The notes below the pieces were generated by a model. It did no database searches. It was not told where the DNA came from and saw only the letters and a program-made list of their open reading frames with translations. This document shows positions 2,746-57,130 of a DNA stretch of 64,000 nt, piece after piece (positions within the stretch are counted from its first letter, which is position 1; the number at the start of each line of letters is the position of its first letter). Source of the DNA: an uncultured archaeon (GTDB lineage: Archaea > Asgardarchaeota > Heimdallarchaeia > Heimdallarchaeales > Heimdallarchaeaceae); contig CAZHRF010000003.1 of the NCBI GenBank assembly GCA_964534625.1, positions 32,001 to 96,000 of the forward strand. Reading direction: 5' to 3'. Position numbers and translations under genes: made by a program.

Positions 2746-4803
2746 ATGAGTGAAAAATGGATAATTACAGCAGCTTGGCCTTATTCAAATGCAGTGCCTC
2801 ATTTAGGTACTATGTTGCAATTGCTGAGTGGAGATGTTATCACCCGTTATCATAAAATACAAAAGCATGATGTTATTTATGTTAGTGGATCTGATAGCCA
2901 CGGTACACCAATTATAGTCGCTGCAGAAGCGGAAGGTTTGACTCCCAAAGAACTATCTCATAAATATCATAAGATTATTGTGCAATCTTTAAATGATTGG
3001 AATATCCAATTTGATAATTACACTATAACATACAATCCGGTTCATACTAAATTTGTTCAAGAGTTCTATAAAAAAATATACGATAACGGTTACATGAATC
3101 TTAAAGTTTCTCAACAATATTATTGTGAGAGTTGTTCTAGATATTTACCAGACAGATTTGTCGAAGGCACATGTCCCAAATGTGGTAAAATAGGCGCGCG
3201 CGGTGACCAATGTACAAATCCCGATTGCGAGATTCTTTTAAAGCCCACAGAATTAATAGAACCATATTGTGCTACATGTAAAAATCAACCAGTATTAAAA
3301 GAAACTGAGCACTTTTATTTCGATCTTCCTGCTTTTTCAGAACAACTCACCGAGATGATTAAAGATAACGACAACATTCCTTCTTTTGCAAAGCAAAAGG
3401 CTTTAAGCATGATTGAAGAAGGGTTAATCGAACGTCCCATAACCCGTGATCTTGACTGGGGTGTACCAGCAGAACCCATCTTTGGAGCAAAAGGTAAAAA
3501 TAAGGTGCTATATGTTTGGTCTGAAGCTGTTGTCGGATATATTTCCGCTGTTAAACAATGGGCAGAAGAGAAAGGAAGTGCTGCTCTTTTTGATCAATAT
3601 TGGCATAATTTAGAGACTAAAACAGTTTATTGTATTGGAAAAGATAATCTTATCTTCCATATAATTCTCTTTCCTGCGTTATTAATGGCTACAAAAGATG
3701 AATACCCGCTTCCTCATGCTGTGGCTACAACGAATTTTATAATGTTCAAGGAAGGACCTTTCTCCAAATCCTTAGGTATTGGTCTGTGGGTCGACGAAGC
3801 TATTGATATTCTTGCAGCAGATTATTGGCGATATTATCTCATTGCCAATCGACCTGAAGCTAAAGATAGTTACTTTGATTGGAAAGAATTTGAACGTACT
3901 ATTAATGTGGAATTAAATGACGTTATAGGCAATTTTATACATCGTACAACTACGTTTATTTCACGTTACTTTGGTGGAAAAGTTCCTAAAAGAGGAAAGT
4001 TAAAAAAAGAAGAGAAAGAGTTGTTAAGAGACATAGAAAAATCTATCGAAGAGTATACTCAGGCTATGAATGAATTTAAACTAAAAGATGCCACTAATAT
4101 TGCCTTAACTCTTGCTAGAAAAGGCAACTCATATCTATCTTCAACTCAACCTTGGCATTTAGTTAAAAATAATAAAGAATATGCAGCCACAGTGTTGAAT
4201 CTTCTTGCCAAAGTAACAGAAGTATTAGTAGTTTTATTATGGCCAATAATCCCAAATGCGACTCAGACAGTTTGGATGGCACTTGGGTTTAATGAGGATC
4301 TTGTTGTATATGGACTTGACGGGATAGATATTAACAATACACTTGAAGAACAAAATATAAATGAAATTACCCCCATCTTCCATAAGGTTAAAGAAAAGCA
4401 GCTATTAAAAAAGTTGGAGAGTTATAGAAAAAAAAATAAAGAAGAAAAGAAATTAAAAAAGGAGAAGAAGACTATGAGTGATAAAATTGCATATGAAGAT
4501 TTTCAGAAAGTACAGCTTAAAATTGCTACAGTCAAAAAAGCCGTACCTGTTGAAAAAAGTAGAAACTTAATGAAAATTATTGTAGATCTAGGTGAAGAGG
4601 AAAGACAAATTGTTGCTGGGATTAAACAATATTATGATGTAGAAGACTTAGTTGGGAAACAAATCGTTGTTGTAGCTAATCTAGAACCCGCAAAATTAAT
4701 GGGTATTAAATCAGATGGAATGCTTTTAGCAGCGGATCTTGATGGAGAACCAATTATCTTACATCCCGATAAAAAAGTACCAGCAGGCACTAAAATCAAA
4801 TAG
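2746..4803 (+). CDS. metG: Methionine--tRNA ligase with C-terminal tRNA-binding domain
   Basis: AAWPYSN..PHLG, Zn knuckles, FSKS (KMSKS-like) and a C-terminal Trbp111-like domain (IVVVANLEPAKLMGIKSDGMLL). Confidence 0.97.
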   Translation: MSEKWIITAAWPYSNAVPHLGTMLQLLSGDVITRYHKIQKHDVIYVSGSDSHGTPIIVAAEAEGLTPKELSHKYHKIIVQSLNDWNIQFDNYTITYNPVHTKFVQEFYKKIYDNGYMNLKVSQQYYCESCSRYLPDRFVEGTCPKCGKIGARGDQCTNPDCEILLKPTELIEPYCATCKNQPVLKETEHFYFDLPAFSEQLTEMIKDNDNIPSFAKQKALSMIEEGLIERPITRDLDWGVPAEPIFGAKGKNKVLYVWSEAVVGYISAVKQWAEEKGSAALFDQYWHNLETKTVYCIGKDNLIFHIILFPALLMATKDEYPLPHAVATTNFIMFKEGPFSKSLGIGLWVDEAIDILAADYWRYYLIANRPEAKDSYFDWKEFERTINVELNDVIGNFIHRTTTFISRYFGGKVPKRGKLKKEEKELLRDIEKSIEEYTQAMNEFKLKDATNIALTLARKGNSYLSSTQPWHLVKNNKEYAATVLNLLAKVTEVLVVLLWPIIPNATQTVWMALGFNEDLVVYGLDGIDINNTLEEQNINEITPIFHKVKEKQLLKKLESYRKKNKEEKKLKKEKKTMSDKIAYEDFQKVQLKIATVKKAVPVEKSRNLMKIIVDLGEEERQIVAGIKQYYDVEDLVGKQIVVVANLEPAKLMGIKSDGMLLAADLDGEPIILHPDKKVPAGTKIK

Positions 4804-4972
4804 ATTACAAGAAGTCATCACCAATAACGCCACCTCTTTTTCTTTTTTAATAGCACTAACGCTTGTTTCGAGACTTTGAATTTACAGGAAGAATACTAAT
4901 ATATAAAAATCGTGTTTAAGCTATACTTTAATCGCATTTAATTAGGAGAAAATATCTGGCAACTTACACTGG

Positions 4973-4990
4973 AAATTACTCGGGTAATTT
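4973..4990. promoter_or_regulatory. Inverted repeat AAATTAC-N4-GTAATTT upstream of the RHH gene; candidate operator
   Basis: Perfect 7-bp arms about 60 bp upstream of ATG 5048. Confidence 0.3.
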
Positions 4991-5047
4991 GTCGATATTA
5001 CATCTATTATTAATATCTATAAAATGTTATAGACTAAGTGATAAAAA

Positions 5048-5203
5048 ATGAAATTAGTAACAGTCCATGTTCCGGCTTCTTTCCTTCAAGATCTTGATGA
5101 ACTAGTAAGACAGAAAAGGTACCCAAATAGAAGTGAAGCTATTAGAGTAGCCATTCGAGACTTACTTAAAGATGAAGCTTGGGAAAGAAAAATAGCATAT
5201 TAA
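5048..5203 (+). CDS. Small ribbon-helix-helix protein (CopG/CdrS-like), 51 aa; not in the ORF track
   Basis: MKLVTVHVPASFLQDLDELVRQKRYPNRSEAIRVAIRDLLKDEAWERKIAY; PNRSEAIR is the CdrS/CopG-type RHH signature. Confidence 0.88.
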   Translation: MKLVTVHVPASFLQDLDELVRQKRYPNRSEAIRVAIRDLLKDEAWERKIAY

Positions 5204-5368
5204 AGGAGAATATTCTATCATAAGTGAATAATGTCTCCACCCTTTATTTTCTTCACATCTTATTTTTACTCTAATATGTTAAGGATTTTTAATTTAAATT
5301 ATAGTAGAGTAACTCTGAAGGATTAAAATAAAGAAGGAGAGATAATTCAAAAAAGTAAACAAAAGAAC

Positions 5369-5634
5369 TAAATGGTACGAAGATTAAAAAGAAAATCAAA
5401 GAAGTTTTTCCAATTCATCTACGAAATAGTCATATTGCTCCATACCTTTCTTCCAGAAATCAGAATCAGAAATATTTACACTCATTTCTTTACCCAACTC
5501 TTCAGGAGACTTACTACCACCAGCAGAAAGCAGATTTTTGAATTTTGGAATAAAGGATTGACCTTCTTCTTGATAAATCCTATACAAAGCGTAAAAAAAT
5601 AATTGAGCAAAAGTTTAGAATAATTATAGAAACG
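5369..5634 (-). pseudogene. Degenerate second copy of the pepF 3' end plus the last codons of a paralog of the 846-aa ORF (direct repeat of 8222-8492)
   Basis: 8 substitutions over ~200 nt by hand alignment with 8253-8450 and a 1-nt deletion near the junction. Similarity continues past the pepF stop (KWYED* vs KWYEN*). Confidence 0.92.
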
Positions 5635-8492
5635 GGAGATAGATAGCGAATGTTTTTAACTTAAATACTTAGGTCTCATAATATTGAGTAAGAGATGAAT
5701 TGATGAAAGATAGTATGGGACAGTGGAACTCAACTACTAAAGAGAAGGGAGAGATATTCATCAAAAAGAGACTCGAGGATATAAATCGTCCTAAAATTAT
5801 TACTATACACAAATATATTCAAAAATCAGACCAAGACATATCAGCTATTTTCTCCCAAGAGATCAATCATCTAAAGAATTTTATTAGAATTACTGGACAA
5901 AAAAATGAAGAAGAAATAGTAGCTGTTGAATTTTTAAAATTACTTTTACAAAAAGTAAAAAAAAGAGATCCTTATATCAAGAATTTAGGTGAGTGGCCAA
6001 AATCAATATTGTTATTCTGGAGAGAATATTATAACTTACTAATCTTAAACCAAATAAATAAATTGAAATTGGGTAACTACAAAAACACCAGATATTTGAA
6101 AAAAGGTGAGCTAGAAGCACTACTAAGGTTATTTCTTCACTTCAGTGGAGTAAAACAAAAAAATTACACCCAAAAGCACGCAGAAAACTTGCAAAAAGTT
6201 TGGATAAAACTACATAGTAAATATGATATATTATTACAAAGAATCAATGAATTACAAATAGAGAATGTTCTTTTTGAAGGTTTAGACAAAGCCAACACTA
6301 CGGGTGGTCTAGATAATATTCAAATATATAAATTGTCTAAAAAAACAAAACTTGCTTATGTTTTTACAACACTAAAATTGGGAAATACTGCAAAAAAGGA
6401 GTTTTATTACTACCATCACACGAAAAGTGATGGGAATTATTCAAGTAAGTGGTATGAAAACTTCATTAAAGCAGGTTTGAAAAAAAATCTTGTCCAACAT
6501 ATCGATTCAATGTTGAAGAATTTACCATATATTTCTACTGAGAAAAAGAAATATATCAAACAATTGCTTCTACTCAGATACAGATTTGTACAAGATTCAA
6601 TGGGCGGAGATTTCTTAAATAAATTAAACCAGCAAAGTAAATTCAATTTAGAAAAATCCATTGCTAAATCTTTAGCTAATTCAAGAACCTATAAGTACAA
6701 TGTTAATGTCCATATGAATGGACTGATTAAGCTCAATCAATTGGTTGAGTTATTTCAGAATGGAGGAACAAGAAGAATTACTAAAAACAAGAACCAACAT
6801 CAAAGAGTTTCAAATGATGTCCTCTCCGCTATAGAAATGAAAATGAAAAAAGCAGAAAAAACTTGCAATTTTATAGTTCATGCAAGTTCATTTTATCCTC
6901 TTCTTGAAGTTGACAACAACCAGATTTATGTTAGTGTTAAAGGATTCAATCTGGAAAAATATAACAAGGGAAGTCAAGAGTATTTTATAGCTAAATCCTT
7001 AAATTCCTTAATTAAAGAGATATCAGAAAATACAGCCCAAGAATTTGGATCTAATCTAAAGATTCAGAAGTTTTTACAGAGTGATAAAACAATTGTTGAG
7101 CTTATCACAAATTATCAACGAAAACTATTGAATAGAATGATCAAAAGGGGATTTATTCAAGAATTCACAAACTATTGGGATGAAAAAAATAGTTTCTTTA
7201 CTTTTTCAACGATGTCAGAACAACCAGAAACAATAAATAAGGCAGTTTACAGAAAGTTACGAATATATAGTGTATTTCCATATGATATCATACAACATTG
7301 GGATTTTCCAACAAATAATACACTTAAAGAATTATTAAAAATAAATACCTTTCCATCAAAAATCTGGGAGGACTATCACAAATCAATTTTCCAGCTAATA
7401 AAAAGGAAAAATTTCAATAAAAATATGTTAGAAATTAAGGGGGAGTTTCAAAGTAATAATATCGACATAGATAAAAAGGGAATAGCAATTCTAAAGTCTA
7501 CTAGTTCTTTCATCTGCTTACCTGGTAGTGGAATGGGAAATGCACATCTGTTTTTTGGACAAAAAAGGGAAAAACTTGTTTTCACTTTTGTTGATGAACA
7601 AGGTAATGTACTAACTATACCAAAACGAAGTAGAGGCGTAGTATTATATTATGAGTTTAATCATAAACTAGAAAATAAAAAAAACGAGACATATGATGGA
7701 CTGATCTTACCACTATGGGTTAATTGGGATAATGAAATATTAAGAGTGAGATTTCAATGTGGTAAAAAAAGGATATTAAAATACTGGTTAAGTAATTTAG
7801 AGATGGAATATGGATTACCAAAGAATATTATTAATAAAATGAAAAATGGGGTCGTCTTAAATCAAGTTGATACTGAATTAATGGTTGTTTTTGTACTTAT
7901 TTGTCAAATATTCGTTAAAAACTGGGATATACATCTAGAAAAAATGTGGAAATCTCGAGAAATAAGAAAGTGGTTAAAAACGGAAAATGTTGAAGTATTA
8001 CGTGATAATGATAACAAATGGACATTTATCCATCAAAACACAAAAATGCAAGTATATCCTGCTATTGCAAAAAAAAGAGCTAAAGCCAATAAGCTTCAAT
8101 CAGGACCCTTTTTAATACCACATAAGAACAGTATACTTGGAAAGTATATTGATAATCTTGTGAAAAGGTTAAAGAAACTAATAAGAGAGAATCCAGATGA
8201 TGAAGCGGTAAAAAAAATAAGTAAATGGTACGAAAATTGAAAAGAAAAAAAATCAAAGAAGTTTTTCCAATTCATCTACAAAATATTCATATTGCTCCAT
8301 ACCTTTCTTCCAGAAATCAGGATCGGAAATATCTACACCCATTTCTTTACCTAACTCTTCAGGAGACTTACTACCACCAGTAGAAAGCAGATTTTTGAAT
8401 TTTGGAATAAAGGATTGACCTTCTTCTTGATAAATCCTATACAAAGCGTAAACAAATAATTGGGCGAAGGTATAAGGATAATTATAAAAACG
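5635..8492. mobile_element. Putative single-gene integrative element inserted in the 3' end of pepF
   Basis: Orphan gene bracketed by a ~270-bp direct repeat that includes the pepF C-terminal coding region; no recognisable integrase. Confidence 0.55.
5700..8240 (+). CDS. Large Lys/Asn-rich hypothetical protein (846 aa)
   Basis: Long uninterrupted ORF with a TATA-like TTAAAT at 5661-5666; no family recognised. Confidence 0.85.
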   Translation: MMKDSMGQWNSTTKEKGEIFIKKRLEDINRPKIITIHKYIQKSDQDISAIFSQEINHLKNFIRITGQKNEEEIVAVEFLKLLLQKVKKRDPYIKNLGEWPKSILLFWREYYNLLILNQINKLKLGNYKNTRYLKKGELEALLRLFLHFSGVKQKNYTQKHAENLQKVWIKLHSKYDILLQRINELQIENVLFEGLDKANTTGGLDNIQIYKLSKKTKLAYVFTTLKLGNTAKKEFYYYHHTKSDGNYSSKWYENFIKAGLKKNLVQHIDSMLKNLPYISTEKKKYIKQLLLLRYRFVQDSMGGDFLNKLNQQSKFNLEKSIAKSLANSRTYKYNVNVHMNGLIKLNQLVELFQNGGTRRITKNKNQHQRVSNDVLSAIEMKMKKAEKTCNFIVHASSFYPLLEVDNNQIYVSVKGFNLEKYNKGSQEYFIAKSLNSLIKEISENTAQEFGSNLKIQKFLQSDKTIVELITNYQRKLLNRMIKRGFIQEFTNYWDEKNSFFTFSTMSEQPETINKAVYRKLRIYSVFPYDIIQHWDFPTNNTLKELLKINTFPSKIWEDYHKSIFQLIKRKNFNKNMLEIKGEFQSNNIDIDKKGIAILKSTSSFICLPGSGMGNAHLFFGQKREKLVFTFVDEQGNVLTIPKRSRGVVLYYEFNHKLENKKNETYDGLILPLWVNWDNEILRVRFQCGKKRILKYWLSNLEMEYGLPKNIINKMKNGVVLNQVDTELMVVFVLICQIFVKNWDIHLEKMWKSREIRKWLKTENVEVLRDNDNKWTFIHQNTKMQVYPAIAKKRAKANKLQSGPFLIPHKNSILGKYIDNLVKRLKKLIRENPDDEAVKKISKWYEN

Positions 8493-10040
8493 AAAGTTGG
8501 GCATATAGTAATGCGGTTTCATCGTCCATTCCCATTTCATTTCTTCAAAGTATTCCATTGCTTCTCCATATACTTTGTCTCTTCCTTTTTCCCATCTTTC
8601 CGCTATCGCTTTTCCATCCAACATTGTTCCTTCTTTTATCGCTTCATAGAGACTTTCTTCAAACCAATATCTTGCACTTACTTGAAATATAGCCATCCCC
8701 GCTCCGTCCAGTATATTGCACAAAATTGCTTTCTTTTCCTTATCATTTTCTGCTTTTTTCAGTAACATATCAGTTAGGAGTAACTCGCCAAAAATTGATG
8801 CCGTTTCCGCTATCACCATTGGTGCTCTAGAGTTGAATCTTGTTTGATTAGCATATGAATAGTAATTGTGTGTTGCATGCCCCAATTCATGAGCTAGAGT
8901 ATATATATTATCCAATGAACCAGTATACGTTTGAAGTATAAATGATGTTTCGTTCATATATGATCCCGAACAAAAAGCCCCATTTCTTTTTCCAAATCTT
9001 GGACTAGCATCTATATGGTTTAGTTCAAACATATTTTTCACACATGTCGCATATTCTTCATCAAAATCCTCGTATGCCTTAGTTACTGTTTCTCTTGCTT
9101 CTTTCCATGAGTAGTTCACTTCATCTGTTGTAATGGGGGCGACTACATCATAGTTTTGTAGGGGTACAGGTAATTCCATTATCTTTGCTTTTAGTCTTAA
9201 ATATCTTTGATACAAAGGAGCATTGGTTTCTACTGATGTCATTAAGTTATCAATGATTTCTTGTGATACGTCATTTATTAAATAACTAGCATCTTTTGCT
9301 GTTTTAAAATTTCTACGATTAACAATTTGCATCCAGTCCCCACAGACATTTCTAAGTGCGGAAGAAAATATTATCTCGTCTTTACCTAGACCAGCATAAA
9401 TAGCCCTATATGCTGACTCTCTTGTTGCTCTATCAGGGTGAGTAAACAAGCCATTGGCTTGACCATACGAGAGTTCTTTTTTTTCTCCTTCTACTTCTAC
9501 CTCAAACATTCGGGTATTAAGCCATTTAGATTGAAGTTGATTCCATCCGCTAACTCCAAATTGGTCTTTCTCGATAATTAATTGTTCTTCAACCTCGCTA
9601 AGCTGGTGAGGAACGCGGTTTTTTAATTTTTCCAGATAGTGTTCATAAACAGCTAATTCATCACTTTCCATAAACTCGGGATGATCATAGATCCACTTTC
9701 CTAGTTCAAGATCAACAAAAGCCAACTTTTTTTCAATTTCGGAACTAGCATCTTGAGACATATTAAACAAGGACTGAGTGTCTGATAAAGTCATATTCGC
9801 AGAAAAACTTAAGCTGGCAAACTGAGCCATATTTGTATACTCACTTAAGAAATTCTCCATGGTTTCAATAAGGTGATAGGCGTCTTTAGTAGAAAAACTT
9901 TCCGTATTTATTTTTCCTTTGTATTTATTTTCTATCTTAGAGGCCTTCGCTTTTAATTCTTGGAACTTTTCTTTAACCTTAGGCAAGTCTATACTTGGAT
10001 AAAGTACAGATAAATCCCAAGTAATTTCCTTTTCGTTCAT
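8253..10040 (-). CDS. pepF: Oligoendopeptidase F (M3B)
   Basis: WDLSVLY N-terminus, KRNGAFC, HELGH zinc motif, AETAS, HYY...FYNYPY. Confidence 0.96.
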   Translation of the reverse strand: MNEKEITWDLSVLYPSIDLPKVKEKFQELKAKASKIENKYKGKINTESFSTKDAYHLIETMENFLSEYTNMAQFASLSFSANMTLSDTQSLFNMSQDASSEIEKKLAFVDLELGKWIYDHPEFMESDELAVYEHYLEKLKNRVPHQLSEVEEQLIIEKDQFGVSGWNQLQSKWLNTRMFEVEVEGEKKELSYGQANGLFTHPDRATRESAYRAIYAGLGKDEIIFSSALRNVCGDWMQIVNRRNFKTAKDASYLINDVSQEIIDNLMTSVETNAPLYQRYLRLKAKIMELPVPLQNYDVVAPITTDEVNYSWKEARETVTKAYEDFDEEYATCVKNMFELNHIDASPRFGKRNGAFCSGSYMNETSFILQTYTGSLDNIYTLAHELGHATHNYYSYANQTRFNSRAPMVIAETASIFGELLLTDMLLKKAENDKEKKAILCNILDGAGMAIFQVSARYWFEESLYEAIKEGTMLDGKAIAERWEKGRDKVYGEAMEYFEEMKWEWTMKPHYYMPNFRFYNYPYTFAQLFVYALYRIYQEEGQSFIPKFKNLLSTGGSKSPEELGKEMGVDISDPDFWKKGMEQYEYFVDELEKLL

Positions 10041-10233
10041 AATAATCTTGATACGAGAGATATATATACATAAAAGGATAACGCAAGGACAAACTTTGAT
10101 TTATACTGAAATTCAGAGAATATTTGAAAAAAATAAGCAAAAGATAGAGACCCTTTTTTTACTGAAGAGGGGTTATTATTTGAAAGTTATTCAGAATAAT
10201 GAAAATTAATAAAGTTCAACATAAGGCGGAATA

Positions 10234-10599
10234 TTACATATTAACAAAATCTTCAGGAACATATCCTTGATTTACTAACCAACGAACTTCATTTCTTCTA
10301 AATCTATGAACAAGTTCTCCACGTTCTTCAGGATGAGACATACCATAATTGGGCATCACAATTACAAGGTCACCAACACGACACCACATCCGTTTTCTGA
10401 ATCTCCCGGGGATCCTTATTTTTCTTAAATTGCCATCTAAACAATTAACCAACAAATATCCTGCGCCTAATATTTGGACTACAACACCAAATATCTCGCC
10501 TTCACCAGGCAATTTGGCTCTAATTGCGTCAGAATATTCTGAGACCCAATCGTCTGAGCCCTTATTTTTGCTTTTTCCGCCTTTTTCTTTTTTAGACAA
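10234..10599 (-). CDS. eif1a: Translation initiation factor aIF-1A
   Basis: EIFGVVVQILGAG, CLDG, RIPGRFRKRMW..GDLVIV. Confidence 0.95.
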   Translation of the reverse strand: MSKKEKGGKSKNKGSDDWVSEYSDAIRAKLPGEGEIFGVVVQILGAGYLLVNCLDGNLRKIRIPGRFRKRMWCRVGDLVIVMPNYGMSHPEERGELVHRFRRNEVRWLVNQGYVPEDFVNM

Positions 10600-10874
10600 T
10601 ATGTATTACCTCAAGTCTTCATTAATGACGTTCTTAAAATAGTTTTTGATGTTTATGAATAAAATAGTAAAAATGATTAGCAAAAAAAAAGATAATAGAA
10701 AAAATTTGTTAAAAAATCTGTTAAAAAATAACCATAAAAAAAGGCTAGCACAATTTGTAAAAATTCTTAAAATAATTAATTATCGTGAACTTGAAATAGT
10801 ATAATAAAAATAAATTTCCAATCAAACGAAACAGAAAAAAAGGCATAATTATTCTTTAACTTGGTGTCCTAAAA

Positions 10875-11285
10875 ATGGAATATGATGATTTATTGAAGAG
10901 AGCACGTAAAGACTTACCAGATACTATCTTTAAACAAACACGTTTCGAAATCCCCCACGTTCGTTCAAATATTGAAGGAAATAAGACATTTTTAACCAAT
11001 ATTCGAGAGATATTAGATACAATAAACCGTGACGGAAATCACTTTCTAAAATATTTAGCGGGAGAATTGGCAACCGCTGTAAATATGGAAGGTAACAGAG
11101 CAGTGTTCGCAGGAAAACATGCAAGATTAACACTACAAAAACTTTTAGAAAAATATATCGAGGAATATGTTTTCTGTAACGAGTGTGGAAAACCCGATAC
11201 TAAGTTGATAAGCGAAGATAGAATGATGAAAAAACGTTGTGCAGCATGTGGGGCTAAAATTGCCGTTAAACCACTAAGAAGATAA
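10875..11285 (+). CDS. eif2b: Translation initiation factor aIF-2 beta subunit
   Basis: MEYDDLLKRA, RFEIP, EGNKT, YVFCNECGKPDT...CAACGA. Confidence 0.96.
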   Translation: MEYDDLLKRARKDLPDTIFKQTRFEIPHVRSNIEGNKTFLTNIREILDTINRDGNHFLKYLAGELATAVNMEGNRAVFAGKHARLTLQKLLEKYIEEYVFCNECGKPDTKLISEDRMMKKRCAACGAKIAVKPLRR

Positions 11286-11300
11286 ATACAAAAGCGTAAA

Positions 11301-11624
11301 TTGATGCGAATGAAGAAATATTATATGAAAGTAATAGAACGACCTAATGAAAAACTCGTTACCGTATGTGACGAAGAGATAATGGAGACAGTATTGCTTT
11401 CAAACAACGTAAAAATTAAACCAACTAAAAAATTCTACGGAACAGAACTTGTGAATCAGAAGGAATTGCTTGATGCACTAAGAAATTGCACATCTGCAAA
11501 TGTAATAGGAACAAATATAGTGAACTTCATGATACAAAAAAAACTCATCCATGAAAGATCAGTTTTGTGGTTAAAGTATCCTGATAAGAAAGGAAAAGTA
11601 GGACACGCAATATTGATACGATAA
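11301..11624 (+). CDS. DUF424 family protein
   Basis: LVTVCDEEI, KFYG, ANVIG; usual neighbour of aIF-2beta and NMD3. Confidence 0.85.
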   Translation: MMRMKKYYMKVIERPNEKLVTVCDEEIMETVLLSNNVKIKPTKKFYGTELVNQKELLDALRNCTSANVIGTNIVNFMIQKKLIHERSVLWLKYPDKKGKVGHAILIR

Positions 11625-11694
11625 AGAAAAAAAAGACACCAAAGAAAATTAGTATGGAAAAACAATACTTATTTTATGGCAAGAACTATTTTTT

Positions 11695-12804
11695 TTGAAG
11701 ATAAAAATGTCGAGTAGATTTTGTGCTATTTGTGGAACTAAGCAAGGACCTTTTGTAAAGAACCTCTGTGAAGAATGTTATAAAAAGGAATATCCTCTAA
11801 AAATAAATATCCCAGATAAAGTAGAAATAGAGATTTGCCCAAGTTGTAGAGCAATAAAACACAAGGGCGTAACTATACCCACATGGGACGAGGAAGAAAT
11901 AGGGGGTATCATCGGAGATTTAGCAAGAAGTATCGTGAGTGAAAAATTAAGAGTGCGGTTTCCTTACACGTTGAAATTTGATGATAATATAGAAGAAAGA
12001 AAAATAATGAATAAAGGAGTAAAGTTTTTTGAATTAAAGACAATAATCCAAGCACGCCCATATGAAGAATTTGGAGAAGTGAAAGAAGAACATATAACAA
12101 AGATATACACAATGAAAGTTCCATGCAATGAATGTACAAAATTAAAGGGAGGATATTTTGAAGCAATAATACAAATTAGGGCGGAAAATAGAAAACCTAC
12201 TGATGATGAGATTAATACAGCAGACCAAATAATTACACAAGTGTTGAATGACCATGCTAATTCCAAATTGATGTATATTTTAGACTATAAGATAGATAAA
12301 AATGGCATTACAGGGAAAGTTAGTTCAAAATTGCTAGCAGAAGAAATGGCAAAAAAGATCAGGGATTCTCTCGCTGCAACATATAGTGTGGCTTATGAGT
12401 TGAAAACTGTTTCAAGCGAAGGACAAAAAGTATATACAAATACATACCTGGTAAAACTATCAAAACTAACTAAAGAGGATATAGTAGAATTTGAAGGAAC
12501 AATGTGGAAAGTTTTAGATATACATAAAAGTTTGATTAAGAGTGAAAATCTTGAAAATCATGAAATAAAATACTTGCACAGAAGAACAATGGAAGAACAA
12601 TCGGAAAAGAGAAATGAACAAATAATAGAAAGAGAATATATGGTACTGGCAAAAGAGAACGATATAGCAATGATGATGACAATGGATAACTATGAAAATT
12701 ATGAAGACAAATGGGAAAAGCTACCACAAGGAACAGAAGTGGGGAAAACAGTCAAAGGATTTCTGTTTGAAGAGAAAAACTATTACGTAGAAGAAAAAAA
12801 ATAG
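11695..12804 (+). CDS. NMD3-like large-subunit biogenesis protein
   Basis: Four CxxC pairs (CAIC, CEEC, CPSC, CNEC) and GGYFEAIIQIR. Confidence 0.93.
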   Translation: MKIKMSSRFCAICGTKQGPFVKNLCEECYKKEYPLKINIPDKVEIEICPSCRAIKHKGVTIPTWDEEEIGGIIGDLARSIVSEKLRVRFPYTLKFDDNIEERKIMNKGVKFFELKTIIQARPYEEFGEVKEEHITKIYTMKVPCNECTKLKGGYFEAIIQIRAENRKPTDDEINTADQIITQVLNDHANSKLMYILDYKIDKNGITGKVSSKLLAEEMAKKIRDSLAATYSVAYELKTVSSEGQKVYTNTYLVKLSKLTKEDIVEFEGTMWKVLDIHKSLIKSENLENHEIKYLHRRTMEEQSEKRNEQIIEREYMVLAKENDIAMMMTMDNYENYEDKWEKLPQGTEVGKTVKGFLFEEKNYYVEEKK

Positions 12805-12861
12805 CTATCAATTGTTCTATAACCATTGAACAGATTTAAGTGCAACTAAAAATAACTTAAT

Positions 12862-12992
12862 TGGGAACAAACCATAGATGCGATGATAAAAAATTGGTTT
12901 GATGATCATTAGAGAGGAGTAGACTCTGGAGCAATGAGCAGAAAATGGTTGAAGTGCAAAACTGGTAACCACAGAATTGCACACAGTTCCCA
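12862..12992 (+). ncRNA. Box C/D guide sRNA predicted to methylate C34 and C39 of pre-tRNA-Trp
   Basis: TATA-like TTTAAG 12835-40; terminal stem TGGGAAC/GTTCCCA. Boxes: C GCGATGA 12880-86, D' ATGA 12902-05, C'-like AGAGGA 12913-18, D ATGA 12934-37. Guides of 9 bp and 12 bp are complementary to the adjacent pre-tRNA. Confidence 0.75.
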
Positions 12993-13141
12993 CTAAAAAA
13001 TCAGATTTTGAGTAATTTATGAAGGGTTTCTACTTGTTTTCATATTGTTTTTGTATGTTTTTCACCAAACAACTTAAAATTTGAATTTAAGGCTCAAATC
13101 ATATAGTTATAAATTTGAGTAAGAGAAATTTAATAAAAAAT

Positions 13142-13248
13142 TGGTGGGGACTAGGATATTTGAAATCCTGACCAACTGGTTTTTTCGCGTGACCGATTAC
13201 CGGTCAGACTCTGGAGCCAGCCACTCTACCTGACTGAGCTAAGTCCCC
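13142..13248 (-). tRNA. tRNA-Trp(CCA) with a 30-nt intron at 37/38 (13181-13210), CCA encoded
   Basis: GGGGACT/AGTCCCC acceptor stem, GCTGG-CTCCAG|A-CCAGT anticodon arm, AGGAT-TTCAAAT-ATCCT T arm; TTTAAA about 21-26 nt upstream. Confidence 0.95.
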
Positions 13249-13603
13249 TGTATGCGCGCTAGGCGCCGTTTAAATGTGTTTTGTGTGTTCCCTAAGTAAG
13301 GGATTCTTTTGTATTTTCTTTTTTTCTTTTCATCTTTTAAGGATTTCTGTTATTTCAGTACTTCCGAAATAGCGTAAGGAAACATCAAAATCAAGAAATA
13401 AGGCGAATTATTTTTGTTCTGAACATTTCAAACAGGATATCAACTGCTTAATTCGGGAGTATTATATTTCTAGTACATACAAAAATGATTTCCTACCCTA
13501 TTTGGAAATATTTTGTTTACTTGGGTAGTTGAAAGTCTTTAATGCTGCTTCTTTTATCATTATCTATTTTCTCTTTACCACTCTTTTTTCAACTATTTTT
13601 TAT

Positions 13604-14002
13604 CTATGCTTAGCCAGAAGACCCACTCCTTGAGGGGTGAGATGAATGGCAAAAAAACACAACAAAAGTCAGTTTTAGCATACAAACATTTTGTAAGGAT
13701 GCTGTCTTTGTGTACGTGTTTTGGTACCATCTCGAAAACCAAGAGTGGTAGGAGACAAGAAGAACAAGATGGAAGTAGAAGATAGGGCTACACATTAAAC
13801 AACGATAATGGGTATACGTATCTACCTAAGTAAGGGTATTGAGGACTTCCGATGTAGAGTCGGTACGTTGTGTGTACTAGAACCATGTACCGTCGGAACA
13901 ACGGGACCTATAGACGACGGTTGTGGAGAAGAGTTCAGCCCTCATTTTGAGGCCACTTCGTTGAAGCAAGAAACCATCTGCCTTTAGGTAGTGGTAGTTC
14001 AT
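13604..14002 (+). mobile_element. Non-autonomous IS200/IS605-family derivative (no tnpA/tnpB) with omegaRNA-like right end
   Basis: Left-end hairpin (AAGA-CCCACTCCTTGAGGGGTGAG-ATGAATGG) preceded by TTAT. Right end GAAA-CCATCTGCCTTTAGGTAGTGG-TAGTTCAT. TnpB-3'-type GTACCGTCGGAACAACGGGA...TGTGGAGA segment. Confidence 0.8.
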
Positions 14003-14665
14003 TTAATGTATCTGAAATGTTCTGATTATCTTTTCTTTCAGGCTCAGATGCTTTCCTTCTCCTTTTGTTTCTCTTTTTCTTATTTTTTCCAACAATTCTT
14101 CTACTGTTTCAACTTTTTCTCCCACTCTCGTATATGCCATGCCTATATCTTTTATTCTATGCGCATCACTTCCTCCTGTTTCTCCCAGTTTGTTTTTTTG
14201 TGCATATTGCTTTGCTTTTTCGTTGAACTTTTGTATAAATGTTGCCCCATTTTGTGTTTCTATTATCACATTTTGCAGTTTTTCCATTCTTTTTCCCACC
14301 CCTTTTCTCATAAAATCATATGGATGAGCCATTACCACCTCTCCCCCTTCTTCTCTTATTTTTTCTACTGTTTCCTCTAATGTCATTCTTTTTTGAATAT
14401 TTTCTCTTACTCCCAACCCTATTACGTGTCCTCCCTCTGTTGATATTTCTATCCCAGGAACTATCAGTATACCTGTTTCTATTTTTACTCTTTTATGGAA
14501 TTTTACCGTATCATGATCTGTTATTGCTATTCCTTTTAGTCCCATTTTTTCTGCTGTTTTTATTATTACCTTAGGTTCGCTCTTGCAATCTGCAGAATAC
14601 TTACTATGTACATGTAAATCATAGTGGAAAACAGATTTTCTTCCTTCTTTTTCACTTTTCTCCAT
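14003..14665 (-). CDS. PHP-domain metal-dependent phosphoesterase
   Basis: DLHVHS, AITDHD, GIEIST, AHP and GGSDAH motifs. Confidence 0.93.
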   Translation of the reverse strand: MEKSEKEGRKSVFHYDLHVHSKYSADCKSEPKVIIKTAEKMGLKGIAITDHDTVKFHKRVKIETGILIVPGIEISTEGGHVIGLGVRENIQKRMTLEETVEKIREEGGEVVMAHPYDFMRKGVGKRMEKLQNVIIETQNGATFIQKFNEKAKQYAQKNKLGETGGSDAHRIKDIGMAYTRVGEKVETVEELLEKIRKRETKGEGKHLSLKEKIIRTFQIH

Positions 14666-14686
14666 GTTTATTGCTCTTTTTCAGTC

Positions 14687-15355
14687 CTATTCTTCATCTT
14701 CTTCTTGTTCTGCTTCATCTTCTTCTTCAAACACTATTCTTTCTAATTGATCCAAATCTGTTATAGTTACTTTATCTTCTTCTTTATTTGGATTTATCCA
14801 TAATTTGCTTCTATTTCGCTTTATTTCTTCTATTTTCTTATTTATAAACGCATATACACTCCCATGTTTTGCCCCTCCAATCAGTCTTTCTATTGCTTCT
14901 CTCGCTATTTCCATTTGTTCATATGACCCTATTATTCCTATTGTATTGCCATAAACAGATATATATGCCCCTGTTGCATTTTCTATGTATCTTCTTGTTC
15001 TTCCTTTTGCCCCTATTATCCTTGCTTTTACTGTTCTTATCAAGTTTGGCGAATTTCCCAATCTATCTCTCAAATTTATTAACATGAACTGATTATCGTT
15101 TTCCGCAATTGTCAACGCTTTTTGTGGGTTAAAACCTCTTGCTATTGCTTTTACCACTTCTCTTGCTTGCATATGTACAATAGGATTTTCTATTTCTTCT
15201 TTTTCTTCTTTTACAATTATTACATCTCCCGACTGACTATCTATTTGCAATTCACACTCTGTCAAGTCTTCTATCTGTTTTTTTACTTCTCCATTTGAGC
15301 CTATTAGTACTCCTAATCTTTTTCTTGGGACGCGTATTAAGTATTCATTTGACAT
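14687..15355 (-). CDS. KH-domain pre-rRNA processing protein (Dim2/Pno1-like)
   Basis: GVLIGSNG, KAIARGF, RIIGAKGRTR, GAKHGSVY; follows Rio1. Confidence 0.93.
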   Translation of the reverse strand: MSNEYLIRVPRKRLGVLIGSNGEVKKQIEDLTECELQIDSQSGDVIIVKEEKEEIENPIVHMQAREVVKAIARGFNPQKALTIAENDNQFMLINLRDRLGNSPNLIRTVKARIIGAKGRTRRYIENATGAYISVYGNTIGIIGSYEQMEIAREAIERLIGGAKHGSVYAFINKKIEEIKRNRSKLWINPNKEEDKVTITDLDQLERIVFEEEDEAEQEEDEE

Positions 15356-15395
15356 TTTTTACACCGTTTATTCTTTACTTTTCACTTATTTTCAT

Positions 15396-16226
15396 TCAAT
15401 ATTTATCATAGAGTTGAAATTTCGGGTCTGGTTTACTTCCTACTATTGCTTCATAAAGTTCATCATTTTGGACAACATTTGCTCCTAAATAGCCAAAATG
15501 TCCATTAATGTTTCTTATATCTCTATATAAGAAATAATGTGCAAAAGGATGACCAATTAATACTGATTGTGACACATCTATAATTATTGGTTCATCTTCA
15601 TAATACAGTATATTGTATTCACTTAAATCAGCATGAACTATTTCTCCTTCTTTATACATTAATTTGATATATTTTATTATTTTCTTGTAAACTTTCTCTA
15701 TTTTCTCTTCATCTAGTTCAACTTCTCGTAACAATGGCGCAGCTTGTTGTTTTTTTCCTATGTACTCCATCACTAGTATATTATTTCGTATATAGTATGA
15801 TTCTGGTACTCTCACTCCCACTTTTTTCATTCTCTGTAAATTTTTGAATTCTTTTTTTGCCCAGAGGTACACAAATGAATACGTACCTTTCTTATAGTGT
15901 TGAAATCTTGGGTCACCTTGTACATATTTCCAGTTTTTCTTGAATTCTGCTGTTGTTGTTCGGTATATTTTTATGGCTAATTCTTCATTCTCTTTATTAT
16001 ATCCATGATATACATTTGCTTCCTTTCCAGTGGCAATAACAAAGTTAATATCCTTTATTATACCCTTATTCATCATTTTTACGAGATCATATCGCGTTTT
16101 CCTATCGAATACAGATTCTAGTACCTTTAACGCATCTGAATCTTTCTCTATATTCCTTCTCCTTTCTTTGTCGATTTTATTCTCTATTTTGTCTTGTTCA
16201 TAGGGGTCATCATATCTTGGAACCAT
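15396..16226 (-). CDS. rio1: RIO1 family serine kinase/ATPase
   Basis: ATGKEANVY, AIKIYR, WAKKEFKNL, VHADLSEYNIL, IIDVSQSV. Confidence 0.96.
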   Translation of the reverse strand: MVPRYDDPYEQDKIENKIDKERRRNIEKDSDALKVLESVFDRKTRYDLVKMMNKGIIKDINFVIATGKEANVYHGYNKENEELAIKIYRTTTAEFKKNWKYVQGDPRFQHYKKGTYSFVYLWAKKEFKNLQRMKKVGVRVPESYYIRNNILVMEYIGKKQQAAPLLREVELDEEKIEKVYKKIIKYIKLMYKEGEIVHADLSEYNILYYEDEPIIIDVSQSVLIGHPFAHYFLYRDIRNINGHFGYLGANVVQNDELYEAIVGSKPDPKFQLYDKY

Positions 16227-41417: not shown

Positions 41418-42669
41418 AGAATTTCGCTCAAAATTTCGAATGGATCCTTATGGAAAAGGGGATGAACCCGAGGGGAGCGACTATAAGATTTTTGTTGGTC
41501 CTCAACATCCTTGGGCTGAAGAAGCTTGCAGATTTATCATACATTTAAAAGGTGAGGTTGTATCAGAAGCAGATATACGTATTGGCTTCAGTTTTAGAGG
41601 TATTGAAAAAGCAATGGAAAATAGAACATGGGTGCAAAACATCATGTTAGTTCCTCGTGCTTGTGGTATCTGTGGCGCCGTACATCAAACTGTCTATGTA
41701 CATGTCATTGAGGCTCTTGCGGGCGTAACCGAAAAAATATCCGATAGAGCGCGCTATATAAGAATGATATCTCTAGAAGCTGAACGCATTCATAGTCATA
41801 TGTTATGGTATGGCATATTAGCTCATGATGCGGGTTTCGATACTCTATTCCACATCGCTTGGAGAGATAGAGAAATAATAATGGATATTATGGAAGACAT
41901 AGGCGGGAATAGAGTCCATTATAGTCTTTCTTTACCTGGTGGTACTAGAAGAGATATAGATGCTACAAAAATTAAAAGAAATCTAGAAAAATTAAAAGAA
42001 TTAGAGAAACAGGTATTATATCATAAGCGCGTATATGAGGAAGAAGCGACACTAAGAGATCGTATCGCCGGTTTAGGTAGATTGTCAAAAAAAGATGCAG
42101 AATTATTGAATTGCGTTGGTCCCAATGCCAGAGGGTCGGGTGTTCCTTATGATGTAAGAAAAGCATATCCCTATGAACTTTATGATAAAATAGATTGGAA
42201 ACCGGTTTATTATACGGGGGGAGAACCTTATGACGTGGGTTTAACACGACTAGATGAAGTTTTAGAGTCTATCAATATTATGAGACAATGTTTTGATGCT
42301 TTAGAAACAGAGCATGGTGAAACGCTCATAAAAGTCAGCAATAGACTGCCAGAGGGGCGACACATATCTAGAGCTGAAGCTCCAAGAGGTGAAGACATAC
42401 ATTTTGGCATAGCAAATGGAACAGACACACTTGATAGATATAAAATAAGATCACCTTCTTTAGCTAATATAGATGCTACACTAAAGAGATTAGATGGAGA
42501 ATATATAGCAGATGTACCTGTAATTTTAAGAACATATGATCCTTGTTTCTCTTGTACAAATAGGATCCTTTTAATAAAGGAAGATACTAATGAGAAGATG
42601 CTTCTAACTCAAGATGAATTTGCTAGAAAAGCGACAATGGCAAAGAAGTATAACAGGAGATTTTTCTAA
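41410..42669 (+). CDS. Group 4 [NiFe]-hydrogenase large catalytic subunit
   Basis: GPQHP, RACGIC (L1), EAPRG, DPCFSCTNR (L2) and a cleavable C-terminal extension. Confidence 0.95.
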   Translation: MNKEFRSKFRMDPYGKGDEPEGSDYKIFVGPQHPWAEEACRFIIHLKGEVVSEADIRIGFSFRGIEKAMENRTWVQNIMLVPRACGICGAVHQTVYVHVIEALAGVTEKISDRARYIRMISLEAERIHSHMLWYGILAHDAGFDTLFHIAWRDREIIMDIMEDIGGNRVHYSLSLPGGTRRDIDATKIKRNLEKLKELEKQVLYHKRVYEEEATLRDRIAGLGRLSKKDAELLNCVGPNARGSGVPYDVRKAYPYELYDKIDWKPVYYTGGEPYDVGLTRLDEVLESINIMRQCFDALETEHGETLIKVSNRLPEGRHISRAEAPRGEDIHFGIANGTDTLDRYKIRSPSLANIDATLKRLDGEYIADVPVILRTYDPCFSCTNRILLIKEDTNEKMLLTQDEFARKATMAKKYNRRFF

Positions 42670-55705: not shown

Positions 55706-57130
55706 TTACAAATTTTTATATTCAACAATTTTTAGTGCAGAGGGTTTTTTTGTTAAATCGCCCATTCTTGCACATATAATCATAGATATACCCTTATTGT
55801 ATGCAACCTCTAAAACTCGTTGGGTTGCTATCCCATCTAATATTAAAGTATTGGCTTTCTCAATTGATAAAAGCTCGTCGTATATGTTTTTTGCTTCTGT
55901 CTTTAGAATTTGTTTCTGATTTTCATCAATCACAACAGCTTCTAATTTCTGTTTTATCTCTTTTAATGCAGCATCAAGATGATCAGGTAAATGTACTTTT
56001 CGTTCTTGATATCTTGCACTTCGATCTTTATATCTTTTTGATTGATATTTTGAAGACCTTGTTCTCTGTCCAGATTTTGAATACTTTGAACTTTTTTGAG
56101 ATTTGGGTGGATGTCTATGTTTTGTAACGTGGGATGTGGTTTTTCTTGCCTCGTGTTTTACGTCCTTCTTTGGTTCTCTTTTTTGAACTTCTGGTTTTCT
56201 TTCTATTTTTGTAGGTTTTTCTTCTTCAATAACAAAAGTATTTTTTGCTTTTGTTTTCTTAATAAATTCTTTAACTGTCAGCCCTTCATGAGACCCAGTA
56301 AGAAATATAGCGTTTTTTACAGTAGTAGCATTATCTAAAGCTTCTTTAATTTCATCACTCTTTAAATCTTCCACTTCTTTTCCTTCTGGAGCACGAGCTA
56401 CTTTATCAATATTGGCCACTTGTAAGAGTTCTTTTAATATTAAATCGCCACCTCTGTCCCCATCTAGAAAAGCAGTTACTGTTTTGTCTTTAAGTATTGA
56501 TTTTAAAGATCTTGGAACGCTAGTTCCATCAACAGCGATTGTATTGTCGATTCCTACTTTTAACAAATTTATAATATCAGCTCTTCCTTCCACCAAAATT
56601 ACTTTTGATGAAGTTTCAAATCCTCGTCCCGCAGTAATTTTTTCTTTACCCAACTTAATTACGGAACTAGGAGTTTTGGCTGATTTTTCAACTTCAGAAG
56701 TGATAGAAGATACAAAGGGACTAACATTCTGATCCCAATTTCTTATGATTTCAGAAGCTCGATTTACAATAGATTTACGTTTATCTACGCGTACATCAGT
56801 AATTTCTTGTAAATTTATTTGACAAGTACAAGGTCCCACTCGATCCACAGTTTCAATTGTTGCTGCAAGAATAGCTGTCTCCGTTCTAGCCAAACTCGTT
56901 GGAATTAAGATTGTTCCACTAGTTTTTCCTCTTGAACTTCTAAGTTCAACATTAATCCTACCTATCTTACCTGATTTTTGTAGTTCTCTAATATCTAATT
57001 CTTCACTTAAAAGGCCGTCTGTTTGACCATAAAGAGCCCCTATAATATCGGGGCGCTCTACAATCCCATCGACCTCAAAATGTGCTTTTATTTCATATTT
57101 TGTTGTTGAAGCGTCAGTTTTTGCGCCCAT
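55706..57130 (-). CDS. dnaG: Archaeal DnaG (exosome-associated TOPRIM protein)
   Basis: KYEIKA..EVDGIVERPDIIGALYGQTDGLL, VEGRAD, FLDGDRGG. Confidence 0.95.
   Translation of the reverse strand: MGAKTDASTTKYEIKAHFEVDGIVERPDIIGALYGQTDGLLSEELDIRELQKSGKIGRINVELRSSRGKTSGTILIPTSLARTETAILAATIETVDRVGPCTCQINLQEITDVRVDKRKSIVNRASEIIRNWDQNVSPFVSSITSEVEKSAKTPSSVIKLGKEKITAGRGFETSSKVILVEGRADIINLLKVGIDNTIAVDGTSVPRSLKSILKDKTVTAFLDGDRGGDLILKELLQVANIDKVARAPEGKEVEDLKSDEIKEALDNATTVKNAIFLTGSHEGLTVKEFIKKTKAKNTFVIEEEKPTKIERKPEVQKREPKKDVKHEARKTTSHVTKHRHPPKSQKSSKYSKSGQRTRSSKYQSKRYKDRSARYQERKVHLPDHLDAALKEIKQKLEAVVIDENQKQILKTEAKNIYDELLSIEKANTLILDGIATQRVLEVAYNKGISMIICARMGDLTKKPSALKIVEYKNL

Follow-up and report, generated by a model that had tools for sequence, protein, structure and literature searches.

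How can a large gene of no known family enter or leave an archaeal chromosome when no mobility gene accompanies it, and how does the housekeeping gene at its border stay whole? This question is raised by a locus of an uncultured Heimdallarchaeaceae archaeon. The DNA analysed here, called the window below, is a stretch of 64,000 nucleotides (nt), positions 32,001-96,000 of contig CAZHRF010000003.1 (GCA_964534625.1); all coordinates are window positions, position 1 being the first letter of the stretch. In the window an 846-aa orphan gene converges on pepF, the gene of an M3 oligoendopeptidase F, and lies between two direct copies of a segment that covers the 3' ends of both genes. A unit of about 2.86 kb, consisting of promoter, orphan and one repeat copy, is a discrete unit of gain and loss. 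We hold, with slightly better than even confidence, that it is a passive one-gene cassette, gained and lost through homologous recombination of the host, and that it belongs to the class known as insertion with long target duplication.

The direct repeat and the empty site

The two copies of the repeat (R_L on the left and R_R on the right, coordinates in Table 1) lie 2,853-2,857 nt apart, start to start, and are identical at 263 of 291 positions with 3 indel events. A core of 230 nt (5388-5617 against 8245-8474) reaches 94% identity. Each copy is built in the same order: the last 11 codons of the orphan, an A-rich spacer of 8-12 nt, and then, on the minus strand, the final ~83 codons of pepF. 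The orphan tail reads VKKISKWYEN before the stop in the right copy and VNKRTKWYED in the left. The centre of the repeat is nearly identical, including a perfect run of about 70 nt, while both ends are far more diverged, and the changes found only in the left copy (19 sites) are mostly to A or T. By whole-genome self-BLAST the repeat is present twice only, at this locus.

Much of this had been noticed in an earlier reading based on the letters alone (the sequence-only reading). It had described the direct repeat around the orphan, its extent over the end of pepF and the last codons of the orphan, the sharp stop of homology in the RFYNY motif beside ATAATTAT and the frameshift in the distal pepF copy, and all of these agree with our alignments. 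Two details were corrected. The sequence to the left of the repeat had been taken for a degenerate continuation of the orphan, but the similarity between 5204-5354 and the orphan is within chance (p = 0.59-0.82), and a comparison of the spacer 5300-5354 with orphan codons 5-23 (p = 0.057) is treated as not significant. The changes in the left pepF copy had been called mostly non-synonymous, but ahead of the frameshift there are 6 synonymous and 6 non-synonymous ones.

The source genome is metagenome-assembled, originates from microbial mats, and has 3.37 Mb in 120 contigs at about 90% completeness. In all three source runs each repeat copy has its own unitigs at the depth of the flanks, and the identical core is found at about twice that depth. 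The depth of the unit compared with its two flanks was 79.1 vs 78.6/81.5, 148.7 vs 148.7/153.6 and 18.8 vs 21.4/22.5; the unit is at chromosomal depth. The somewhat lower value in the last run (X3) is too weak to claim a population of cells without the unit. A joint 6209->8233 in the source runs, which is of low depth and extends over only 21 nt to one side, was taken to come from another organism or a repeat.

The evidence that carries the argument comes from a close relative. Among 5.8 billion proteins there is one PepF that is 95% identical to this one, encoded on a contig of 6.7 kb (L042) from an independent microbialite metagenome. The gene order on this contig is NMD3, DUF424, eIF2beta, eIF1A, pepF, a spacer of ~200 nt, the ribbon-helix-helix (RHH) gene and the end of MetRS, with no orphan. 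Its alignment to the window leads from 5389 straight on to 8245, with 2,855 nt skipped, and the two genomes differ by 2,855-2,857 bp. The empty site is genuine, because the contig passes unbroken through its single repeat copy. Its spacer is orthologous to 5204-5395 and carries a tail-like VKKRTKWYED followed by a stop. No contig resembling the orphan at a likeness of at least 85% was found in the metagenome run of the relative. The proposal of the sequence-only reading that the ~2.86 kb form a discrete unit is thus supported by a genome that has the same site without it.

Differences among the repeat copies

In a three-way alignment the left copy matches the right copy at 263 of 291 positions and the relative at 264 of 291, and the right copy matches the relative at 275 of 294. 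The left copy is no nearer to the right copy than to the relative, so the divergence of the repeats dates from before the lineages parted or from about that time. Within the central ~200 nt the copies differ from each other at 8 sites and from the relative at 10-12; that the copies are each other's closest relatives holds for this centre, not for the whole repeat.

The sites that are unique to one copy are separated along the alignment. All 10 differences found only in the right copy are located at or left of 5468, while the 19 found only in the left copy are located at or right of 5464, except for a 2-nt length difference in a poly-A run at 5386. The separation has a Mann-Whitney p-value of 9e-5 overall and of 0.023 in the pepF part alone, with site 5464 as the single one out of order. 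The relative thus appears to resemble the left copy at the left and the right copy at the right, a pattern that fits one reciprocal crossover between repeats that had already diverged. The exchange would have taken place around 5464-5476, at a distance of about 170 nt from the repeat's right edge and about 110 nt from its left one.

In the account that we prefer, a single reciprocal crossover at this place, between diverged copies, would have had one of two outcomes: the 2,857-bp unit was looped out in the relative, which is slightly favoured, or its circle was integrated here in the manner of Campbell. Either way pepF would be kept whole, and the orphan would be selected cargo and not the engine of the movement. 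The sequence-only reading had proposed that the unit repeatedly targets pepF. This is not supported: six related pepF loci have neither a second pepF tail nor a homologue of the orphan, and one crossover explains the difference between the two genomes.

The origin of the tail inside the repeat bears on the order of events. SKWYEN, the last six residues of the orphan, recurs at its residues 249-254 with three synonymous differences, and such a recurrence is seen in 0.045% of shuffled proteins (chance p ~4.5e-4). Judged by this internal match, the tail in the repeat is probably native to the orphan and not target DNA, in line with what had been read from the left copy before. If the tail is native, the tail sequence in the empty site of the relative is therefore derived from the orphan, and the orphan or the repeat structure would be older than the split of the two lineages, which favours loss in the relative. 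In general, loss in the relative, and likewise loss followed by re-gain, is preferred to a fresh insertion at a virgin site.

A second locus and competing histories

We searched the genome against itself by BLAST for repeats of which one copy extends over a pair of convergent 3' ends and the other is intergenic, with one large open reading frame (ORF) in between. There is only one other locus of this layout. On contig C32 (L043) a 1,233-aa ORF without a Pfam domain (3649-7350, plus strand) is convergent with tbp (7404-8033, minus strand). A repeat of 187 nt with 96% identity (3382-3568 and 7299-7485) covers the last 17 codons of this second orphan, a spacer of 52 nt and the last 27 codons of tbp, and it recurs ~80 nt upstream of the orphan start, where the tail has a premature stop. 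Because two loci of identical design are present in one archaeal genome, the process may be general.

The orphans of the two loci are unrelated, and the tbp-locus orphan is not related to its neighbour either (E = 0.25 against TBP in BLASTP). No motif is shared by the repeats of the two loci (p = 0.25-0.66). For the tbp locus we found no relative whose site is empty: TBP is too conserved to single out a close relative, and the left neighbour is rare. The leaders of both orphans look alike (window 5650-5710; L043 3606-3660), with ATGTTTTTA and, some 45-55 nt further on, AATTGATG at the start codon. The local alignment has p = 0.07, and the likeness is either a shared promoter and start architecture or chance. 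Further, a 5,237-aa frame in a related genome (G001) shares a stretch of ~155 residues with the tbp-locus orphan.

A looser third case and one further repeat were also observed. On contig C11 a 231-nt repeat with 85% identity (L044 3769-3998 and 6607-6836) duplicates the 5' end of an S-adenosylmethionine (SAM) methyltransferase gene 2,838 nt upstream, within a 120-aa ORF, and a 702-aa NHL/beta-propeller and CBM56 gene lies between the copies. On contig C4 a 61-nt direct repeat with 95% identity (42393-42453 and 55802-55862) surrounds seven ORFs in 13.4 kb; one of its copies is near the 3' end of a 519-aa ORF, and the segment resembles a conventional integrated element.

An unlikely alternative to the exchange of an old unit is a fresh insertion with long target duplication into a site that had never been occupied, after the split, with the 291 nt of target duplicated to either side and the frame of the orphan running into the target until the first stop. 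The locus has the features by which the class is recognised in practice, i.e. a repeat above 30 bp that is not multi-copy, an empty site and no mobility gene, and the "tail" sequence is indeed present in the empty site of the relative. At 32% G+C the frequency of stop trinucleotides is 0.066, which gives a mean run of ~15 codons, and the tails of 11 (pepF) and 17 (tbp) codons match such a chance read-through. The absence of similarity left of the repeat and the central ~200 nt, where the two copies are nearest to each other, also agree with it. However, over the whole repeat the copies are no nearer to each other than either is to the relative, and both ends of the repeat would have had to change faster than neutrally. 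The internal SKWYEN match would then be a coincidence or the mark of a joint guided by microhomology, and the start of the insert just upstream of the promoter at both loci is left unexplained.

We also consider it rather improbable that the site was occupied before, as the sequence-only reading proposed. In this history an older orphan would have been lost except for its last 11 codons, and the unit would then have been acquired again, as a circle from a diverged donor, in the tail of pepF. Such a history agrees with the orphan-derived look of the tail in the empty site, its two events account for both boundaries of the repeat, and the reciprocal pattern of sites fits a single crossover with a donor repeat that was ~10% diverged. 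However, neither a donor lineage nor a second allele of the orphan was found in 5.8 billion proteins or in the metagenome of the relative, the pepF tails of six other genomes show no sign of occupation, and an identical two-step history is needed at tbp. The present data do not separate re-acquisition from loss in the relative.

Several points weigh against the cassette exchanged by host recombination as well. Loss in the relative and gain here are not polarised, as the data hold two lineages of the genus only, and the event that first produced the left repeat is not reconstructed. At both the pepF and the tbp locus the repeat begins 11-17 codons inside the orphan and the insert begins just upstream of the promoter, and this tidiness of the boundaries is not explained by random duplication and erosion. 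Finally, the right end of the left copy, changed mostly to A or T, is located just upstream of the orphan, and the left end of the right copy is coding. Because one end is promoter-proximal and the other coding, the partition of the sites may in part reflect uneven selection.

The orphan, known systems and the genomic setting

The orphan protein has 846 aa (845 from the likely ATG at 5703) and a pI of 9.8. The TATA-like run in its leader is found ~50 nt before ATG 5703, and an in-frame stop is located 13 nt before 5700. Searches of Pfam, NCBIfam, PADLOC and PHROGs gave nothing usable, and no integrase, transposase, reverse transcriptase (RT), nuclease, mobility or defence domain was matched. 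A feature search of the ESM Atlas also gave no usable match. The orphan is single-copy in its genome at both protein and DNA level, and by BLASTP it is not derived from its neighbour pepF (E = 0.37).

The AlphaFold model of the full-length protein has a predicted local distance difference test score (pLDDT) of 39.7. For residues 590-846 alone, the model reached a pLDDT of 60.9 and a predicted template modelling score (pTM) of 0.65. With these 257 best-modelled residues, Foldseek against PDB gave a best E of 0.29, and in VIA-align, run on 48,161 chains, Z did not exceed 4.1; either value is at noise level. These negatives cover the C-terminal model only, as the N-terminal ~590 residues gave no usable model, and the weakness of the model leaves room for a nuclease fold. 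A profile of four members of the orphan family had one match among PDB sequences, with E = 0.37.

Relatives of the orphan are very few. A word-index protein search returned the orphan itself as the sole match, and scans of viral and metagenome contigs returned none. An exhaustive HMMER search of 1.8 billion representatives gave one relative of 548 aa with 26% identity, and a six-frame search of 60 related genomes gave three distant ones with 21-26% identity. In G017 (L041 8234-10746) the homologue consists of overlapping ORFs of 289 and 548 aa, either a frameshift or two genes; in G011 it ends at the contig edge; in G026 (L004 1516-1959) it is a C-terminal fragment with a stop. All three are at other loci and have no neighbour genes in common. 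The split and fragmented homologues suggest that the family decays readily.

Here, the orphan is probably under selection, because the left pepF copy gained indels and a frameshift while the 2.5-kb frame stayed open. The protein also contains exact internal repeats of 5-6 residues: LKLGN (residues 122/225), FNLEK (315/416), IAKSL (321/430) and SKWYEN (249/841). Three of these pairs are ~100 residues apart, a hint of a repeated module.

Could the orphan move itself? A site-specific mobile cassette at the 3' end of pepF, in which either the orphan would act as a new recombinase or the unit, like a cis-mobilizable element, would be moved in trans, is in our judgement very unlikely. Its boundaries are tidy from promoter to repeat, the repeat contains the perfectly identical ~70-nt stretch, the same design is seen at a second locus, the orphan is large and basic, and its family is patchy and at different loci (4/61 genomes). 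Against this stand the lack of a match to any integrase, transposase, RT or nuclease family or, for the modelled C-terminal part, to a known fold, as well as the single copy of the unit. The repeat is found twice only in the genome, therefore no partner element that uses this site is apparent in the 90%-complete assembly. Further, the orphans of the two loci are unrelated, and the crossover maps to the interior of the repeat rather than to a core at its boundary. The homologue in G017, the only one with enough flanking sequence, has no flanking repeat of at least 40 nt. Of the expectations in the sequence-only reading, the absence of a recognisable recombinase in the unit has stood up to these searches. 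Its suggestion of a mobility enzyme finds no support in a single-copy, very rare gene with homologues at other loci and no fold match, and the homologues do not always abut a duplicated gene tail. That the repeat is an assembly artefact, a possibility that this reading had raised itself, or a chance repeat is practically out of the question even in a metagenome-assembled genome of 120 contigs, as diverged copies have their own unitigs in three runs with a core at ~2x depth and as 291 nt at 90% identity is far beyond chance.

Several known systems leave similar structures. Phage 21 and e14 (at icd) and integrative plasmids that target tRNA genes bring with them a substitute 3' end for the gene they enter, use a tyrosine integrase and cross over at a short core at the edge of homology. 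As in these elements, the displaced 3' end of the target is here left as a pseudogene, with the functional copy at the other end of the insert; unlike them, no integrase was matched in the pepF unit and the mapped crossover is inside the homology. Cis-mobilizable elements (CIMEs) are remnants of integrative and conjugative elements (ICEs) or integrative and mobilizable elements (IMEs), flanked by attachment (att) sites but without an integrase of their own; their att repeats are short, and they share the site with a partner element. The pepF unit is similar to a CIME in being a recombinase-less segment between direct repeats at a gene 3' end. It differs in that no third repeat copy or partner was found in the 90%-complete genome, where integrases elsewhere were not surveyed.

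No inverted pair joining the ends of the insert was found and the duplication is 291 nt, which does not agree with the terminal inverted repeats and the short target duplication of a transposon or insertion sequence. No tRNA gene is present in window 4000-14500. Aloposons target tRNA genes and have giant genes as their cargo (PMC8813620). Three readings of the structure, as an integrase-type element, a transposon or an aloposon, were rejected, as there is no matched integrase, no terminal inverted pair, and neither tRNA targeting nor a giant gene as in aloposons.

The class called insertion with long target duplication was described by Nobusato et al. (2000, Gene 259:99) and by Furuta, Abe & Kobayashi (2010; PMC2853133). 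Its repeats are 46-423 bp long and often span a stop or start codon, and gene fusion at the joint has been reported (PMC2853133). The class is tied to restriction-modification genes and was described in bacteria, mostly for such genes; no archaeal case survived the screen, and the mechanism was left open (PMC2853133). The class is defined by direct repeats >30 bp, a single-copy empty site, no mobility gene, an insert <20 kb and a repeat that is not multi-copy (Furuta 2010). At pepF we find repeats of 291/295 nt, a relative with one copy, one 2.5-kb ORF flanked by MetRS, RHH and pepF, and two copies genome-wide. The likeness to the class thus consists of a small gene unit without a mobility gene and of repeats far longer than the duplications of transposons. 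In the class, as here, the target gene stays whole because the repeat spans the stop codon. However, there are differences: the host is an Asgard archaeon and the cargo an orphan rather than a restriction-modification system. Moreover, the repeats are old (90% identical), with the left copy no nearer to its partner than to the empty site, and one part of the repeat is the tail, apparently native, of the inserted gene itself.

Another pathway to the same structure consists of a tandem duplication and a subsequent recombination with a genome in which the segment is missing (PMC3457768); it was put forward for rRNA operons, where the insert has 21 nt. The repeat-insert-repeat product arises here too with no function encoded by an element, and the pathway allows the tail of the inserted gene to be part of the repeat, as at pepF. 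For pepF it is a proposal only, and donor or recipient intermediates are not known.

The features of the locus are collected in Table 1. The genes to the right of pepF are eIF1A, eIF2beta, DUF424 and NMD3, which mark the DNA as archaeal, and the named relatives by pepF are Heimdallarchaeaceae.

Table 1. Features of the pepF locus in window coordinates.
Feature	Position	Strand	Remark
MetRS	2746-4803	+	left flank
RHH/CopG gene, 51 aa	5048-5203	+	conserved flank, also in the relative, hence outside the unit
Spacer of 150 nt	between RHH gene and left repeat		orthologous in the relative
Left repeat copy R_L	5355-5645		decayed duplicate of the junction of orphan 3' end and pepF 3' end; 19 unique sites
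Copy of the orphan's last 11 codons (VNKRTKWYED and stop)	5355-5385	+	
pepF 3'-end pseudogene, last ~83 codons	5396-5645	-	1-nt deletion near 5614; stops in RFYNY by ATAATTAT
Inferred crossover interval	5464-5476 (= 8321-8333 in right copy)		relative would switch from left-copy to right-copy match
Orphan leader/promoter region, 54 nt	5646-5699	+	holds TATA-like run ATGTTTTTAAC
Orphan gene, 846 aa	5700-8240	+	no known domain
Right repeat copy R_R	8208-8502		functional junction: orphan tail, 12-nt spacer, intact pepF 3' end
pepF, M3 oligoendopeptidase F, 595 aa, intact	8253-10040	-	

The position of pepF varies among the genera of the family: in one genus it is co-directional after NMD3, and the two complete genomes have it in inverted orientation. 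In the present genome, as in the close relative, pepF has been relocated beside MetRS, and a three-gene block went the opposite way (window 2746-16226 compared with L035-L040 and L042). In G001, a genome of genus g2 (L037 10873-19788), a 2,971-aa ORF is convergent to pepF, one gene distant.

What does the locus tell about gene flow in these archaea? It is a clean empty-site case, in which a large orphan comes and goes in an Asgard archaeon without the machinery of a mobile element and with the housekeeping neighbour intact. The crossover mapped between diverged repeats indicates that such scars make an inserted gene reversible through ordinary recombination. The decayed pepF copy serves as a rough neutral yardstick, against which the orphan appears maintained, and the orphan therefore merits functional study. 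The tidy recurrent design, from promoter to tail, at a housekeeping 3' end and at two loci, is the part that remains to be explained.

One speculative explanation, to which we give little weight, is that archaea of the Heimdall group carry recombinase-free, homology-armed one-gene cassettes, circles that would pass from strain to strain, enter and leave by host recombination and always restore the target gene. Each such cassette would possibly, and with no greater confidence on our side, comprise a promoter and a single lineage-specific gene together with a copied housekeeping 3' end (pepF; tbp). If true, the archaea most closely related to eukaryotes would have a distinct and recurrent route along which orphan genes flow.

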